Source: a virus (lineage: Duplodnaviria > Heunggongvirae > Uroviricota > Caudoviricetes). From it: a DNA stretch of 42,050 bases. The notes below the pieces were generated by a model. It was not told the DNA's origin, did no database searches, and saw only the letters and a list, made by a program, of their open reading frames with translations. The stretch is from IMG/VR virus record IMGVR_UViG_2609459854_000002, one strand, 5' to 3'. Of the stretch, positions 13,698 to 24,530 are shown piece after piece (the stretch's first letter is position 1; each line of letters opens with the position of its first letter). A program made the translations under genes and the position numbers.

Positions 13698-14993
13698 TCA
13701 CGCGGTCTGGTTAGGCAGACCAACACCAATTGCCTCTGGCCGTACAGCACATGCTGAATACCACACAGCAATACGGCACTTGCCAGACAGAGTGTTGATA
13801 TCACCCTGCGTTGCGAAGATGCCGTTAACACCAATGCCAGGAATGCTGAAGGAAGAAGTTTTCATGCCAGCAAACAGTTCATGGGTTACCGGGATCGGCT
13901 GAGACAGCAGGCGGATTGAGTCATCAGCCCAGAACACGTTAGCGGTGGTTGTTGCCACGTTCAGAACGTTTACCGGAGTGGTATCAGCAAGAGAGGTGTT
14001 TACGTTAGCGTAAGCCTTCTCTTCTTTTGTCAGTGACGCGTCATCCAGTGCAATCGGCTTCGGCGTGATTTCGATGTGAGTACTATCGATCACACGGGTG
14101 ATTGAGAAAGTCGCATCATCAGTTAGCACGTTCTTCGCCATCTGAGACAGGAATTTCACACCAGTGAAGCTGATTTTGTCTCCGCGCTTAAATCCGGTGG
14201 TGGAGGATACGGTCACCGTTGCAACACGGTTATCGACGTTCTCTTTGTTACCATCGGTATCAAGGGTGTATGCCTGCGGCTTAAACTTCTGCGCACCAGA
14301 AACAGTTACACCAGTAGCGGTTGACTTGGTAACTGCCGGAAGTTTCGGTGAGCGAAGAATTTCATCAAAGCCAGCAATCTGACGCTGAATAGTACCGTTG
14401 CGATACGCGTCTTCAGGAACGCGCCCAAAGATGTCACCATCTACCAGGTTGCGGCCTGCTTTGCGGTAATCGTCAGGGTTCAGGAAGTAACTGATGCCCA
14501 TATCGCGGTTTAGCTCACGGGAGAACATCAGGCGCTCTGCATCAGACACAAAATCCCAGCCAGACAGGCCAGTAGATGGACCAATTGCGCGGGTATCGTG
14601 AACAACAAGTGAGCCCATTTCGGTTGCCTGTTTGGCAATTGCTGACTCAATGTTATTCGCCAGTTTTTTGGCGGATGCCTGGATGCGGCGACGGTAAGAA
14701 CGCTCATCACGCAGGTCATCTGCACGAAGCTCGAAGAAATCGTTATCCGGATCGCCCATGTTGCATTTCACGGAGAGTTCCAGAATCCCTGTTGCGTTGC
14801 CAGTTAAATCCCAGCCAGTCTGGGTTGGCGATTCCTGCTCAACAGGCATCCACACGGTGTTGCTTGAACGCTGCATGGATTCTGCCGGAGGGGTGTATTT
14901 TGTCACTTTGGACGCCATTGGCGTCAGGTTCTGGACGGTTTCGATGATTTCATCGATAGCGTAAGTAACTAACTGCCCTTCTTTGAGAGTCAT
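13698..14993 (-). CDS. Major capsid (coat) protein, P22 gp5-like
   Basis: 431-aa ORF; long near-identical stretches to the P22 coat protein as recalled (e.g. [34 protein letters not shown]). Confidence 0.9.
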
Positions 14994-15060
14994 ATATTGA
15001 ATACCTTACTTTCTTTATGTGCTATACTATTGTTATATCAACATATAGCGCATTAGGGTT

Positions 15061-15582
15061 ATGAGCATGGAACTGAATGAATACTTCGAATACCGCGATG
15101 GTTCTTTGGTTTGGAAAGCCAGAAGCTCTGAATTTTTCAACAACAAAAAGAATCGCAACTATCACAACGTTTGGAATGCAAAACACGCTGGGAAAGTTGC
15201 TGGTCTTTTAGAAAGCAATGGATATATCCGCATAAGAATTAACGGCATTAAGTGGCTAGCACACCGCATCGTATGGGTAATGTTTAACGGAGATATTCCA
15301 GAAGGCATGGAAATTGACCATATAAATGGGATTCGCCACGACAACAGAATTGAAAATCTTCGTCTTGTGAAAAAATCAGCAAACCAAAGGAATAGAATCA
15401 AACTATCTAAAAATAACTCCAGCGGAATATCTGGAGTTTACTTTTGCAACACGCGGAAAAGATGGATCGCTCATAAGCGACTGCTTAATGCAAGAGTGCA
15501 AAAAGTATGTTCTTCATTCGAAGAGGCGAAAGAAGTAATCAGAAAGTTTGACGAGGAAAACAACATCACGATATCGAAATAA
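15061..15582 (+). CDS. HNH homing-endonuclease-like protein with AP2-type domain
   Basis: 173-aa AT-rich ORF antisense to the late operon, between coat and scaffold genes; HNH motif region EIDHINGIRHDNRIENLRLV...NQRN and downstream SGISGVYF...RWIA (AP2-like). Confidence 0.75.
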   Translation: MSMELNEYFEYRDGSLVWKARSSEFFNNKKNRNYHNVWNAKHAGKVAGLLESNGYIRIRINGIKWLAHRIVWVMFNGDIPEGMEIDHINGIRHDNRIENLRLVKKSANQRNRIKLSKNNSSGISGVYFCNTRKRWIAHKRLLNARVQKVCSSFEEAKEVIRKFDEENNITISK

Positions 15583-16494
15583 TTATCGAATTCCTTTATT
15601 CAGTTGCGCCTTAAGCTTGCGGTACGTCTCTACATCCCCTTTGTTTGCTGCCGCTTCCATCTGCTTTTCAATCGCAGAGATATTTGCAGCAACAGCGTGT
15701 CCCTGAATGGGTTCATCAGGTAACGGGGCTTCTGAAACAGGCTTGGCTCGAGGCTTGAGAGTTAAACGTTCTGACAGTCGAGTTAGTTCAATCAGCGCGG
15801 ATTGCCCGTCCATCGCCAGTAACTGGCGTGTCTTCTCAGGATTAGCACCAAGGTGATACATGAGAGCAGCGGATTTCTCCGGGAAGAGGCGCATGATGTT
15901 GGCACCGACTGCTGGCGGCACCAGTTGCATGAATGCATCCTCTTTCTCCTGATAGTCATGGATATTGAGCTTTTCCGCTGCGTCGTAGTGCTTACGGGCT
16001 GCCTCGACGTATTGCGCTGATTGCTGGGTGAACTCCTGAGTTTTGCGACCCTGCTCGGCGACAGCCTGGCTTCGTGCGTCCATAGCCTTGATCTGCCATT
16101 CACTGTTTGCCTGCTGGAAGGCAGCCAGTGCGCGACTCTGGTCATAGTCGTACTTAGCCAGTGCATCTTCGGAAAGATAATCGTTAGGGTCTGGTTGTTT
16201 TGGTAACTCAGGGTTCACCCGCAGGTGCTCCGGCAACTCTCCACGCTTAACCGCTTCCATCTGCTGCTCAAGCTCACGCTGGCGTTTGCGTTCAATGCGG
16301 CGACGGGCAAATTCAGCATTAGTTGCCGGGTCTTGTTTTGGTTTCTCATCGTCTTTCAGGACAATCTCGAAGCCTTCTTCCTGACCTGCGTTGTCGTTGG
16401 CATTATCGACAACTAAGCCATCAGCAGATGCCGCTGCATGATTGCCGGGCAGGGTTAATTCTTCAGAAGCCTGAATGTCGGTGGTTTGGTTCAT
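15583..16494 (-). CDS. Scaffolding protein, P22 gp8-like
   Basis: 303-aa ORF, same length as P22 gp8; C-terminus ...[17 protein letters not shown] matches the coat-binding helix-turn-helix end of gp8 as recalled. Confidence 0.85.
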
Positions 16495-16507: not shown

Positions 16508-18676
16508 TTATTGAGGTGTCTCGGCTACTCCGCCGGAGGGGATTTGAACTTGACGCATAAGATTCGCGAAATCCATGCGTTGTGAATGAGTCTGGTCTGC
16601 ATCTTTAAGAAGCAGCTCAGCGTTAGCACGAGCATCTTTGCTGCGCTGTTGCTGGAATTGACCTACGAGCTTGAGGTACTCACGCAGTTCTGCCTGCTTG
16701 TCGAGGTCCATATTGTTGAAGATTTCTGCAATCTTCGCGGCGTTGAGTTGGTTTTGGGCTTCAACCTTGGCAGCTTCAACCTGAATCTGCGCCTGTTGGT
16801 TCTCTGCCTTGAGCAATTCAGCCTGACCTTGCAGAAGGATACCCTGCGCCTGAATTTGCTCTGCTGATGGCTGCTGCGGCTGCTGTTGCGCCTGTTGTAC
16901 CATCTCCATCTCTTCAGGTGTTTCTGGTTTCTTCAGCCCCATCATCACCAGTTGCTTGTTCGCGTACTCTCGCATCATCTCGACGCCTTTACCGTCAAGC
17001 AGCGTGAAGTATTGCAGCATCAGCATCTGGAACTCTGGAGTACCTTGCGGAACCTTTGTTAGCAACTCCTGAATCTCTGCGCGATTCTGTTCCTTCATGC
17101 TCTGGAAGGATGGTCCAACGTCTGTATAGCACTCATAGCGACCGCGAATGTCGTTGAGTGTGACCACATTGCCGGACTGGTAATCGACAACTTGCGCATA
17201 GAGTTGAACGTCTTTCTCGCTTCCATCTTCAAGTGTCAGCGTTACATGACGAGGAACGTCATAAATATCATTGACCATTGAGGCATAAATCTCGCCATCA
17301 CGTCGCATTGCGGTAGCCAGGTTATCCTGAAACACGTATGTCTCAAGGTCTGCCCGCATGTTCAGTTGATTGACGGTATCGAAAGCGACCTGAGAGTTTG
17401 CTGCCTGCGCATCCACACCAAGACTAGCCACCTCTTTCACTGCGTTGGTGGCAGCCTCAAGCATGTAAGCGTTGGCTTGCGGCACTTCAGGGTTTTCCAT
17501 GTAGGAGATTGGACCAATCGGCAGGTCGTTACCGTTTTCATCGGTCCTGTTCTGCAGATAGTACGGATAGTCATCATTTCCACCGTACATGTATTCGTAG
17601 CCTTCGATTTGCTCAGGGAAGAAGGTCGGTTTCTTCTTCGGTGAACGAGCAACAATATCGGCGTTGAACGACATGATCATGTTACGAAGGCGTTGACCGT
17701 CTTTCGTCAGCCTTACCACTCCTTCGTAGCACTCCTTGTCACCAGCGAATGACCATTCGCCATACACTGGAACGATTGGAATATGCTCTCCGGCTATCTT
17801 CTCGCGGTCTTTCAGTATCTGCGTGCAGGTGATAATCGACTTATACACACGCCGACGCTTCACCTTACGCTCTGCTACCTTAATGAATCCACGATTAGCC
17901 AGGTCGTCGATGACGTCTTTGATATCCTGCTGGTAATAGCTGACTGGCTCACCTGTCAGTGGGTCGCGGTAGATGAAGACTTTCTCTTTCTTCTCTTCGA
18001 CCTCGTAATACTCAGCGACGTAGACGACATCATTCGATACCCACGGAAACAGCCATGTATCGTTCGGATTCTGGAAAGATGGCAAGGTGTCCGGATCAAT
18101 ACCGTAATCCTCTGCGAACTCTTTCCAGCCATTGCGCGACAAGGCGTTAATCACCGTGCAGTGCTTAGCGTCGCTCTTATCCATCTGCTTGCTGTTGGCG
18201 TCCCATATGACGTGTGAGCAGGCTTCATGAATTGGCAGGCGTCGAATTACCTGATTGTTGCTTGTTGGATCGTTGTCTTCGTACTGCGTGACCAGACGCC
18301 ATGCACCAACGCCGGACTCTATCTGCTCACGAACGCCAACGTTAACGGCAATTTTTGCCGTGTTATGGCGCATATCAGTACGATACATCCCCATCAGCAC
18401 ATCGGCAGCATCAGGATTAGCGCCGTCTTTGGGTCGGAAGAGAACGTCGATAGGGTTCCGGCGCATCTCTGCGACCAGTTTCCTGACCACCGGGCGAACA
18501 ACATCGAATTGTCCACGATATTGCAGGGTGGTGTAGTTTGATAGCCAGTCATCCCATTGGCTTATGCGACTGAAGTATAAATCGTTAGAAGCTTCTGTTC
18601 TCGCCTCGTCGGAAGACATCCAATCAACATCGAATGCTTGCAGTATCTTATTTAATCGCTCTGCGTTGTCAGTCAT
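16508..18676 (-). CDS. Portal protein, P22 gp1-like
   Basis: 722-aa ORF (P22 gp1 about 725 aa) upstream of scaffold; Gln-rich C-terminal region typical of the P22 portal barrel. Confidence 0.85.
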
Positions 18677-18726
18677 AACTTTACCGTGATAAAATCAATG
18701 GGACAACTTCAACAGGAGATTCTATT

Positions 18727-19227
18727 GTGAGCCATCCATCTATAGAAGATATAAGGAAAAATTTCACATACGATGCTGAAACCGGAATTTTGTACGCGGC
18801 TAATCGCACAAGGAGGACAGACCTTAACGGCAAGCCCGTTGGGTGCCAGCATGGAAACGGATACCTTGATGTAAGGCTTGGTAAAAAACTGTACTACGTG
18901 CACAGAATTTGTTTTGCGCACTACTATGGTTACTGGCCCGAAGCAGTAGATCACATAAACGGAAACCGTGCTGATAACCGCATCTGTAATCTTAGAGATG
19001 CCAATAAGCAGTTGAACGGACTAAACCGTGGCATGGATTGCGACAATTCAACTGGATACAAAGGAGTTTCCTATCGCAAGGACACAAATAACTACATGTG
19101 GCAATTTGTGGTAGAAGGCAAGAAATACACAAAAAGCGGATTCGCTACAGCATTAGATGCATACAAGCATAAGGTAGCATTTATTAACGCTCTGAATTCC
19201 GCTGCCTCTGAATTTCTCAAGCCGTAA
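18727..19227 (+). CDS. HNH homing-endonuclease-like protein with AP2-type domain (paralogue of 15061..15582)
   Basis: 166-aa ORF starting at GTG with AGGAG 8 nt upstream; antisense between portal and terminase large subunit; motifs VDHINGNRADNRICNLR and TGYKGVSY shared with the other HNH gene. Confidence 0.75.
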   Translation: MSHPSIEDIRKNFTYDAETGILYAANRTRRTDLNGKPVGCQHGNGYLDVRLGKKLYYVHRICFAHYYGYWPEAVDHINGNRADNRICNLRDANKQLNGLNRGMDCDNSTGYKGVSYRKDTNNYMWQFVVEGKKYTKSGFATALDAYKHKVAFINALNSAASEFLKP

Positions 19228-19236
19228 CAACAGTAT

Positions 19237-20739
19237 CTATCTTGTTGACCGTGCGATGGGCCTGATTGGGGCTGGTATCTTTTTCTCTTTTGGTTTTTTG
19301 ATGTCGCGCATCATTTTTGCGAAGCGGCGCATCATGTATGCATAGCGAACGGCGGAGAGAACGTCATCGTTAAGCTTGACGATTTTCCCGTTTTCATCAC
19401 GGTGATAGAGGCGGAACTCCTCAAAGAATGGCTCACAGGTGTTGAATACTTTGAAGCGGCCATCAAGCATCATGTCGCGCAATTCAGTGATTCCAGGCTC
19501 CACAGCATTACCGCCATCAGGCCATGTCGCATGCTCCTGCAACATCATAAAACCAGCGTCTGCATACTGCCCTTTGAGCTGCTCACCTCCGCCCTTCTCA
19601 TGCTGGTTTCCGTCATGAGGCCATGCGGTTGGCACTTTATGCGCCCATGATTTAACAGCTCCCCATGCCTGAACAGCTGTTTTTTCTTTCGCCTTCCACA
19701 CGCGTGAAACGTAGATTGTGTCTGCGTCCTTATCCCACCAAAGCTGAACCTGCGCCTGTGGGTGATCCCATCCGAAATCCATCCCGCCAATTACGTAGAA
19801 GTGATCAGGACACTCGAACGGCTGACACTTAATCGTCTCTTCCGGTATCTGGAAGATTCGACCACTACCCATCGTAGGAATACCGCGAGCACGCGCTTCT
19901 CTCTCATGCTCAGGATAGGATGCGATGATTTGCTCTTTCTGCTCGTCGGTGTAGTGCTCAGCGTCATAGATGGTCATGTTGACCACTTTCTGCGACTTGC
20001 TGGGATTCTTCAGGAACTTGGTAACAACGTCAGACATCCCCATCAGCGGGGTAAACGTCAGAATTGAGAATTGACCGTATTTGTTGGTACGGGTAAGACC
20101 TTCGCCATAAATGCTGTATGGTGGTTCTTCGTCAAACCACACGCCGTGGATTGTGTCACCCTGCCAGCGAGCACGGCCTTGCGAGTATGGTTTGAAGTAG
20201 CAGATTGAAATGCCATCTTCAACGCCATCAGCCGTGTGATGCTTAACCAGAAGATGATCAACAAGGTTCGGAAAGAAAGGAGACTTCTTCCAGCTAATGA
20301 TGTCCTCTTTCGGTATGGAACCGTAGCCTGGCTCATCATTCTCTTCGATACGACCGCACAGGATGCGTTGAGTCGTTTTGGTTACCGTCTCGTTTGTCTC
20401 GCCGCCAATCCAGAAGACAACAGGCTCATAGAAACGCTTACCTTTCCACTCCCCGCCATATTTACCATCAGCAGGATAGCCTTTTGTGCCCGGATAACGC
20501 CCGGTAAGGTGAAACGCGACTTCAGCAGCACCAGTAAATGACTTACCAAGCTGGTTACCAGCCATAAAACAGCGCTCTGGATAGTCATGCCCGGCGTCGA
20601 TGAACTCACGCTGTTTGCTGTATGGCGTAAATTCATATAGCAGGTGTGTGTTCCGGTAGTTCTCTTCTTCTTCGAGTAGCTCGAGCAATTCGATTTGCTC
20701 TTCGTCGCTCAGGTTATCAAGAATCGCGTCCAGTTCCAC
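19237..20739 (-). CDS. Terminase large subunit, P22 gp2-like
   Basis: 500-aa ORF immediately downstream of, and overlapping, the small subunit gene; size matches P22 gp2. Confidence 0.85.
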
Positions 20740-21205
20740 GGTTGAATAGCTCCTTGATACGAGAGCGTCGCTTATCGCGATCTCCCTTATCAGGTGTCAC
20801 GTCTTCAACTTGCGACTGCTCTTTGAGGCCCAAATCACGGGCGATGATGTTAGCGTTGAGAAGGTCAGCGGCTGCGCCAGAGAATTTCTGGTCGTAGATG
20901 ATGTCTTCCGCTCGTGATGTGACGTCAGAAAAACCTTCCATTGACCGGAAGGTTCCCCATGTTTGCCTGGTGATATCAAGGAAGGTACACAATCCTGAAA
21001 TAGTCATGGCTCGCATCTTAGGGACATTAGCCTTAATTATTTCTCCCTGATATGAAAATACCTTACCCTCCCATAGCGGGTTATCATCAGCCCACTCGAA
21101 GTATTCACAACAAGCAGCCCACAGCGCCTCAGGCGATTCGAATTTAGGGTTTCGCCCATGACTACTGCGGGCCTCCCAAAATCGGTTGCCCTTTGGTGCT
21201 GCCAT
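20717..21205 (-). CDS. Terminase small subunit, P22 gp3-like
   Basis: Sequence [38 protein letters not shown]... and C-terminus ...[24 protein letters not shown] match P22 gp3 as recalled. Confidence 0.85.
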
Positions 21206-21240
21206 ATTCATCTCACTTAATTGTTATTTCAGGTTGAGCA

Positions 21241-24374: not shown

Positions 24375-24450
24375 TGGTGCTGGTTAACGGACTTGAACCG
24401 CTACCCATTCGCTTACAAGGCGACTGCTCTACCATTGGAGCTAAACCAGC
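24375..24450 (-). tRNA. tRNA, anticodon UGU (Thr) by manual fold
   Basis: Minus-strand sequence GCTGGTTTAGCTCCAATGGTAGAGCAGTCGCCTTGTAAGCGAATGGGTAGCGGTTCAAGTCCGTTAACCAGCACCA folds as a cloverleaf with 7-bp acceptor stem, canonical D and T arms, encoded CCA. Anticodon call made by hand. Confidence 0.6.
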
Positions 24451-24455
24451 ATATT

Positions 24456-24530
24456 TGGCGGGACAGCGTGGACTCGAACCACGATAAGAAGGTTAACAGC
24501 CTTCCGTAATGACCTTTATACGACTGACCC
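24456..24530 (-). tRNA. tRNA, anticodon GUU (Asn) by manual fold
   Basis: Minus-strand sequence ending ...CGTGGTTCGAGTCCACGCTGTCCCGCCA with perfect anticodon stem GAAGG/CCTTC and loop CUGUUAA; one mismatch in acceptor stem and an imperfect D stem. Confidence 0.5.

Follow-up and report, generated by a model that had tools for sequence, protein, structure and literature searches.

A probable free-standing HNH-AP2 homing endonuclease gene on a cassette at the terminase/portal junction of a P22-like phage

Introduction

Phage endonucleases that combine an HNH nuclease core with an AP2 domain are a well-known architecture (PMC2248197, PMC10448857), and homing endonuclease genes (HEGs) at terminase and structural genes, as well as at the boundaries of genetic exchange, have been documented (PMC10448857, PMC2248197). 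The HNH(HNN)-AP2 enzymes of T5-like phages, Felix O1, RB49/RB43, the Xanthomonas phages Xp10/OP1 and ICP1 (IPA-HNH), that is, the Magnani 2004 class, have the same two domains and the same PHROG 99 assignment as the gene analyzed here; they are often multicopy, and they are found beside essential genes and at recombination boundaries. A different kind of HNH-superfamily nuclease, the HK97 gp74 type, is also encoded beside terminase genes; however, proteins of this type are conserved in their phage group, co-oriented, small, zinc-binding, devoid of an AP2 domain and used for cos cleavage, and none of this holds for the gene described below. The closest described system is that of phage SEN22, in which an orthologue lying between the terminase and portal genes has already been described as an inserted homing endonuclease (PMC5261728). 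In our literature search, the SEN22 paper was the most specific account of a P22-like HEG.

In this study, we analyzed an antisense gene at 18727..19227 of a 42,050-nt stretch of caudoviricete phage DNA (IMG/VR record IMGVR_UViG_2609459854_000002; the window, which denotes the whole stretch). Elements of this kind are known, and the site has been noted before; what is added here are the exact limits of the cassette, the portal tract that is transferred with it, a relic start codon, a conserved predicted promoter and the signature of a sweep.

Results

The endonuclease gene and its neighbours

A sequence-only reading of the window had reported a second HNH-AP2 gene antisense between the portal gene and the gene for the terminase large subunit (TerL), and the ORF, its position and its HNH_3 and PHROG 99 matches confirm this. 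The genes concerned are:

13698..14993, minus strand: coat gene, P22-type late operon
15061..15582, plus strand: second endonuclease gene (HNH_3/AP2 type, 173 aa), antisense at the scaffold|coat junction
15583..16494, minus strand: scaffold gene, P22-type late operon
16508..18676, minus strand: portal gene, 722 aa, PF16510 P22_portal, late operon, downstream neighbour of the endonuclease gene
18727..19227, plus strand: endonuclease ORF, 166 aa plus stop, GTG start, predicted free-standing homing endonuclease gene
19237..20739, minus strand: TerL gene, 500 aa, Terminase_6N/6C, late operon, upstream neighbour of the endonuclease gene
20717..21211, minus strand: small terminase gene, P22 gp3 family (GP3_package), late operon

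The endonuclease ORF occupies the 560-nt gap between the TerL stop (19237, minus strand) and the portal ATG (18676, minus strand), where it runs antisense to the P22-type late operon and convergently with TerL. An AGGAG ribosome-binding site is located at 18715-18719, 7 nt 5' of the GTG start. The product matched Pfam HNH_3 (PF13392) over residues 56-98 with E=2e-13 (50.1 bits against a cutoff of 24.8) and PHROG 99 'HNH endonuclease' with E=4.7e-50, and as sequence matches both lie far beyond chance. The NCBIfam search of this product gave zero matches, and PADLOC gave only weak hits to generic 'HEase' models (E=9.9e-5). In RefSeq, the E. coli copies of the gene are labelled as HNH endonuclease proteins. 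We regard 18727..19227 as a real and intact HNH-AP2 homing endonuclease gene, and its product is probably active. Elsewhere in the phage genome, adjacent tRNA-Thr(TGT) and tRNA-Asn(GTT) genes are present at 24375-24530 on the minus strand.

Nuclease core and AP2-like domain

Two domains were delimited in the product:

18892-19020, plus strand: HNH_3 nuclease core, residues ~56-98 (Pfam HNH_3)
19051-19200, plus strand: AP2-like DNA-binding domain, residues ~109-158 (family profile, AF2 model and Foldseek)

The motif DHINGxRxDNRIxNLR, which the sequence-only reading had found to be shared with the second HNH gene, was present in both products (DHINGNRADNRICNLR in 18727..19227 and DHINGIRHDNRIENLR in 15061..15582), and the other shared motif that it proposed, GxxGVxY, was only approximate (GYKGVSY versus GISGVYF, with the aromatic residue shifted by one position). 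The nuclease motifs also stood up to closer analysis: across 27 aligned family members, D75, H76, N78, D83, N84, R85, N88, L89, R90, N97 and N100 were invariant, and D75-H76, N88 and N97 aligned with the DH...N...N of I-HmuI from Bacillus phage SPO1 (VVDHKDGN...NLR...KIN of 1u3e). The catalytic roles of these four residues are presumably those given in the I-HmuI literature. I-HmuI was the sole PDB sequence match, with E=0.015 for the single protein and 1.3e-7 for the family profile. In the AF2 model (pLDDT 85), strands 73-76 and 89-92 followed by helix 94-99 form a beta-beta-alpha-metal fold in the HNH part, and the best Foldseek match was again I-HmuI (1u3e, probability 1.00), although with an E-value of only 2e-3 and a TM of 0.45.

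The enzyme of the window and I-HmuI (PDB 1U3E), a nicking endonuclease, both have a His-Me finger of the DH...N...N 'HNN' type that lacks zinc-binding cysteines, and a beta-rich N-terminal DNA-contact region before this nuclease motif. In contrast, I-HmuI is intron-encoded and the gene of the window is free-standing, the two proteins are only ~17% identical, and the C-terminal region of I-HmuI is a helix-turn-helix where the enzyme of the window has AP2. Because no CxxC pairs occur among its four cysteines (40, 62, 87 and 105), the product was assigned to the zinc-less 'HNN' type.

The AP2 label of the sequence-only reading held in part. By Pfam, the product alone did not reach the AP2 threshold (13.6 bits against 33.3, E=0.083, residues 109-141). 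In the AF2 model, the C-terminal part consists of a three-stranded sheet and a helix (strands 114-117, 122-129 and 132-139, helix 142-158), and the next Foldseek matches after I-HmuI were PfAP2 3igm (probability 0.95), ApiAP2 (apicomplexan) proteins and plant WRI1, the Foldseek E-values for this model being weak (2e-3 and 5.6e-2). The family profile matched plant AP2/ERF chains (WRI1 with 2.6e-7, TEM1 with 2.1e-5, and also ERF096 and AtERF1), and many homologues at 35-44% identity carry PF00847. The AP2 assignment of the C-terminal domain is thus supported at the level of the family profile and the predicted fold.

Between lineages of the orthologues, pN was 0.08-0.23 and synonymous sites were saturated, so that a dN/dS ratio was not computable; the ORF was full length in every lineage examined. 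The endonuclease protein is subject to purifying selection and its catalytic residues are intact.

Orthologues at one site and the optional presence of the gene

The protein search returned nine clusters at 66-99% amino acid identity, followed by a gap to 44% or less. The clade to which the gene belongs is a separate, tight lineage with at most 44% identity to any protein outside it, and it differs from other HNH(HNN)-AP2 endonucleases in occupying one site only, in temperate P22-like phages, antisense in the late operon and with a conserved predicted promoter of its own. In the loci of eight of the clusters and in SEN22, the gene was always located between P22_portal and TerL, antisense and 22-54 nt from the portal ATG, and the small terminases beside it belonged to three families (GP3_package, Sf6_terminase and Terminase_2). 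The SEN22 orthologue gp3 (ALF02424.1, 'homing endonuclease') has the same TerL|portal site and the same antisense direction, is 68.7% identical in amino acids over its full length, and is preceded by a spacer with the same CCGTGATAAAAT...TGGGA block; however, it differs from the window's allele in its ATG start, in its portal 5' tract (58% amino acid identity over residues 1-40), in its saturated synonymous sites and in its Salmonella diarizonae host.

Presence/absence mapping in related genomes, which the sequence-only reading had proposed as a check, found the site empty in six phages, Dewey, CurroJimenez, APC_JM3.2, HZ41, IME10 and Louie, which have ~97% identical flanks and lack ~566 bp. 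These empty sites have precise boundaries, the portal ATG coming directly after the TerL stop, as at the junction of Dewey (...CGGAGAACTTAAATGGCC...). In complete E. coli genomes with a terminase|portal junction (n=215), 213 junctions were empty and 2 carried the insert; the endonuclease gene is therefore rare, at ~1% of these junctions, a frequency lower than would be expected of an efficient drive. As several phages with an empty site form plaques, the gene cannot be a core packaging function.

The occupied junctions retained traces of the insertion. The empty junction of P22 reads GATAATGGCC, and in SEN22, L007, L008, L009 and L011, a relic TAATGG or TGATGG, in which the TerL stop runs into the opening bases of the former portal ORF, adjoins the endonuclease stop. 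In the four HEG-less P22-type portals compared, the protein starts with MAD (ATGGCCGA), and JEP4, whose portal is more distant, also has MAD there but with ATGGCTGA. Every HEG+ portal starts with MTDN, MEN, MDNK or MDFK and shows fixed differences in the tract that follows, such as TTC for TTT within the motif (K/R)FD and SR(I/L)S where the others have SRVS. The relic stop/start beside the endonuclease stop indicates that the element entered the portal ORF once, in an ancestor, a few bases inside its start, and that the far end of the cassette provided the portal gene with a new start; the different portal starts and fixed tract differences fit such a single event.

Limits of the mobile unit

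The exchanged unit spans ~690 bp (18557..19248) and comprises the endonuclease gene, a 50-nt spacer, the first 40 portal codons and an altered TerL end. Apart from the gene itself, its parts are:

18557..18676, minus strand: first 40 portal codons, exchanged with the endonuclease gene (co-conversion-type tract); ~57% identity to HEG-less relatives, against ~98% for the rest of portal
18677..18726, unstranded: 50-nt spacer from the portal ATG to the endonuclease start, with the -10 element, TGGGA and AGGAG; GC 34%
19228..19248, unstranded: right cassette edge, 9 nt of spacer behind the endonuclease gene followed by the end of TerL (stop and last three codons, altered)

On the left, identity to Dewey was 58-60 of 60 positions per interval up to 18556 and then fell to 35/60 and 34/60 over 18557..18676, a tract in which the protein is largely conserved and most synonymous positions are changed. 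On the right, alignment with Dewey and SEN22 placed the break inside the last three or four TerL codons (...ARSTR-stop versus ...ARRT-stop). The GC content was 43.5% in the endonuclease gene, 34% in the spacer, 42.5% in the portal tract and 43% in the whole cassette, compared with ~50% in the rest of portal and TerL.

On both sides of the insert, a direct repeat, short and imperfect, was observed at ~18683-18692 and ~19246-19256 (ACCGTGAT and ACCGTGCGAT; ACCGTG...GAT), and also in L011 and L012. CACGG stands both upstream of the TerL end and upstream of the new portal ATG, and the repeat was seen in some lineages only. The repeat, too short for significance, may have been left by a duplication of the coupled TerL-end/portal ribosome-binding region.

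Linkage and recent spread of the cassette

Two pairs of loci separated the history of the cassette from that of its surroundings:

L005 versus L006: HNH 100% amino acid identity, portal residues 1-40 100%, rest of portal 92%, TerL C-terminus 59%
Window versus L004: HNH 87% amino acid identity, portal residues 1-40 88%, rest of portal 71%, TerL C-terminus 79%

By these sequence comparisons, the endonuclease allele and the portal 5' tract move together, independently of their neighbours and of the TerL type. The eight genomes that carry the allele of the window (L003 and L014-L020) were then compared with the window as the reference:

692-bp block 18557..19248: differences at 0-3 sites
TerL: 25-42 differences of 1491
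Rest of portal: 29-55 differences of 2049

At the ~2% rate of the flanks, ~14 differences would be expected in the 692-bp block, and the cassette is 5-10 times less diverged than the flanks. This flank divergence among carriers equals that to HEG-less genomes, and the portal flank of the window is nearest to a HEG-less locus. Polymorphism among the carriers restarts at 18515-18530 on the left and at 19318 on the right. A near-invariant cassette in diverged backgrounds argues for recent horizontal spread, and the pattern is what would be produced if the window's allele had recently spread among E. coli phage backgrounds ~2% apart, by homing or at least by cassette-specific recombination. The mosaic pattern could in principle also stem from ordinary homologous recombination unaided by the endonuclease.

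Just left of the invariant cassette, HEG+ polymorphism was dense at 18397-18530, with ~8 differences in ~130 bp against an average of ~2%. Sharp mosaic boundaries were also observed in TerL near the cassette: L005 and L006 have an identical HEG and a TerL of 59% identity, and TerL identity between the window and SEN22 rises from ~75% to ~97% at about 19836-19837. Such boundaries beside the cassette fit nuclease genes as markers of the boundaries of genetic exchange.

Comparison with the second HNH gene

The two HNH products of the window were 41% identical over 85 aa in BLASTP (E=7e-17) and ~30% identical overall, a similarity that does not exceed the one each has to unrelated members of the family. 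Their distributions were also separate. Phage Dewey carries just the scaffold|coat copy, L003, L014 and L016-L020 carry just the terminase|portal copy, and both copies are present in L015 and in the window; among complete E. coli genomes with the respective junction, the scaffold|coat copy occurred in 20 of 218 and the terminase|portal copy in 2 of 215. A recent intragenomic duplication of 15061..15582 was rejected, since overall identity was low, neither copy was closer to the other than to other family members and the distributions were independent. These comparisons support the view, put forward in the sequence-only reading, that the two diverged genes are independent insertions at essential-gene junctions, drawn from one broad family.

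The 15061..15582 gene resembles the terminase|portal copy in its layout and has a GC content of 38.9%. In the 67-nt spacer 5' of it (14994-15060), an extended -10-like TGcTATACT was seen by eye and was not reported by the promoter scan. Within the gene, at 15415-15438, there is a perfect palindrome with an 8-bp stem (AACTCCAG...CTGGAGTT), which the terminator scan flagged on both strands.

Expression signals of the endonuclease gene

One promoter-like element precedes the gene:

18666..18695, plus strand: sigma-70 promoter-like element, with -35 TTGTCA at 18666-18671, an 18-nt spacer, TG at 18687-18688 and -10 TAAAAT at 18690-18695

The promoter scan scored this element 10 of 12, a TG standing ahead of the -10. 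On the opposite strand, portal codons 2-4 are overlapped by the -35. In eight lineages with saturated synonymous sites, the TTG, the TAnnAT of the -10 (TAAAAT, TAATAT or TAGAAT) and the spacing were all invariant, and the TTG of the -35 was kept although the overlapped portal codons encode different amino acids among lineages. The endonuclease gene thus seems, from this conservation, to be transcribed from its own promoter, independently of and convergently with the late operon. A TGGGA at 18699-18703, 3-4 nt 3' of the -10, was invariant amid variable bases in all eight lineages (L002-L012 positions), and it could be the transcription start region.

The search for a terminator 3' of the endonuclease gene found none that was convincing, only a weak 5-bp stem inside the TerL coding sequence (19259-19273), which was treated as chance; the endonuclease transcript would consequently run antisense into TerL. 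A terminator-like hairpin with a T-run at 18905-18889 on the minus strand, inside the endonuclease ORF, was not conserved in SEN22 and was treated as probably chance. Late transcription of P22-type phages is antiterminated.

A mini-ORF of 10 codons is present at 18698-18730 (ATGGGACAA...TTGTGA), and its TGA overlaps the endonuclease GTG start (GTGA). In SEN22 and L008, the ATG of the mini-ORF is in frame and lengthens the endonuclease by 9 aa; the mini-ORF was rejected as a conserved feature, since no ORF conservation was observed in other lineages.

Discussion

Taken together, we consider it highly probable that 18727..19227 is a free-standing HNH(HNN)-AP2 HEG, carried on a ~690-bp cassette at the TerL/portal junction of a P22-like (Lederbergvirus) phage or prophage. 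In the mechanism that we propose, transcription of the gene would start at an extended -10 sigma-70 promoter of its own and run against the late operon, so that its expression would be independent of late transcription. As expected from its family, the product would act as a monomeric I-HmuI-like His-Me-finger nuclease with an AP2-type tether. In relatives that have no HEG, it would nick or cut the intact TerL-stop/portal-ATG junction, either during co-infection or when a lysogen is superinfected. Repair off the HEG+ genome would then bring in the gene together with the adjacent ~40 first portal codons, a joint transfer that the comparative data show. The HEG+ allele itself would be immune, since its junction is interrupted by the insertion and the adjoining portal sequence is recoded.

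This homing cycle leaves room for a more speculative extension, which we regard as rather unlikely: a repressed prophage might make the endonuclease, so that the lysogen cuts the TerL/portal junctions of superinfecting HEG-less P22-like phages, thereby combining a gene drive with narrow-spectrum superinfection (marker) exclusion, and read-through could yield an anti-TerL antisense RNA. A related proposal, to which we give slightly less credence, reverses the emphasis, in that the enzyme would be a co-opted competition or exclusion nuclease, expressed from the prophage to cut superinfecting HEG-less P22-like phages, with homing as a by-product. The conserved sigma-70-type promoter separate from the late operon, the long-term purifying selection, the temperate nature of the host phage and the weak PADLOC 'HEase' match (E=9.9e-5) would all agree with this role; however, the rarity of the gene (2/215) speaks against a strong defensive benefit, and homing explains a near-identical cassette in diverged backgrounds more simply. 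An exclusion role and homing are nevertheless compatible and not mutually exclusive.

It is very improbable that the gene is an inactive relic, that is, a decaying HEG without cutting activity that ordinary recombination carries along within a mosaic population of phages. HEG life-cycle models do predict decay after fixation (PMC2248197), and the window's allele has a GTG start and a relic junction that is degraded compared with other lineages; however, decay is at odds with an ORF that is full length in all lineages examined, with catalytic and structural HNH residues that are all invariant, with a pN far below pS, with a conserved promoter and ribosome-binding site, and with a cassette 5-10 times less diverged than its flanks.

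Packaging in P22-type phages is of the pac/headful kind, and the small terminase beside the gene belongs to the P22 gp3 family, which is one argument against a packaging nuclease. Least credible of all, and already doubted by the reading that raised it, is such a role of the HK97 gp74 type, in which the protein would work with TerL and portal on concatemer cutting as a core of the packaging module: the gene does adjoin TerL and portal, and HNH proteins beside terminases can stimulate cos cleavage, e.g. HK97 gp74 (PMC10448857), but it is missing from viable phages with ~97% identical terminase and portal genes and from 213/215 E. coli prophage junctions rather than conserved in all close relatives, it is antisense to rather than co-oriented with the packaging operon, its product matched only HNH_3 and AP2 and lacks CxxC zinc-finger pairs rather than being a PF01844-like paired-CxxC HNH protein without a separate DNA-binding domain, and the cassette has spread independently of TerL type.

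The terminase|portal cassette leaves current understanding unchanged. For annotation, 18727..19227 should be called a free-standing HNH-AP2 homing endonuclease and not a packaging factor, and the mobile unit should be taken to include the first 40 portal codons. The cassette helps account for the mosaic boundaries beside TerL in P22-like phages, and it provides a clean natural case of a selfish cassette in the translationally coupled junction of two essential genes. Since cultivable phages with matched occupied and empty alleles are available (Dewey, IME10 and SEN22), the system may serve as a simple model for homing in temperate phages.
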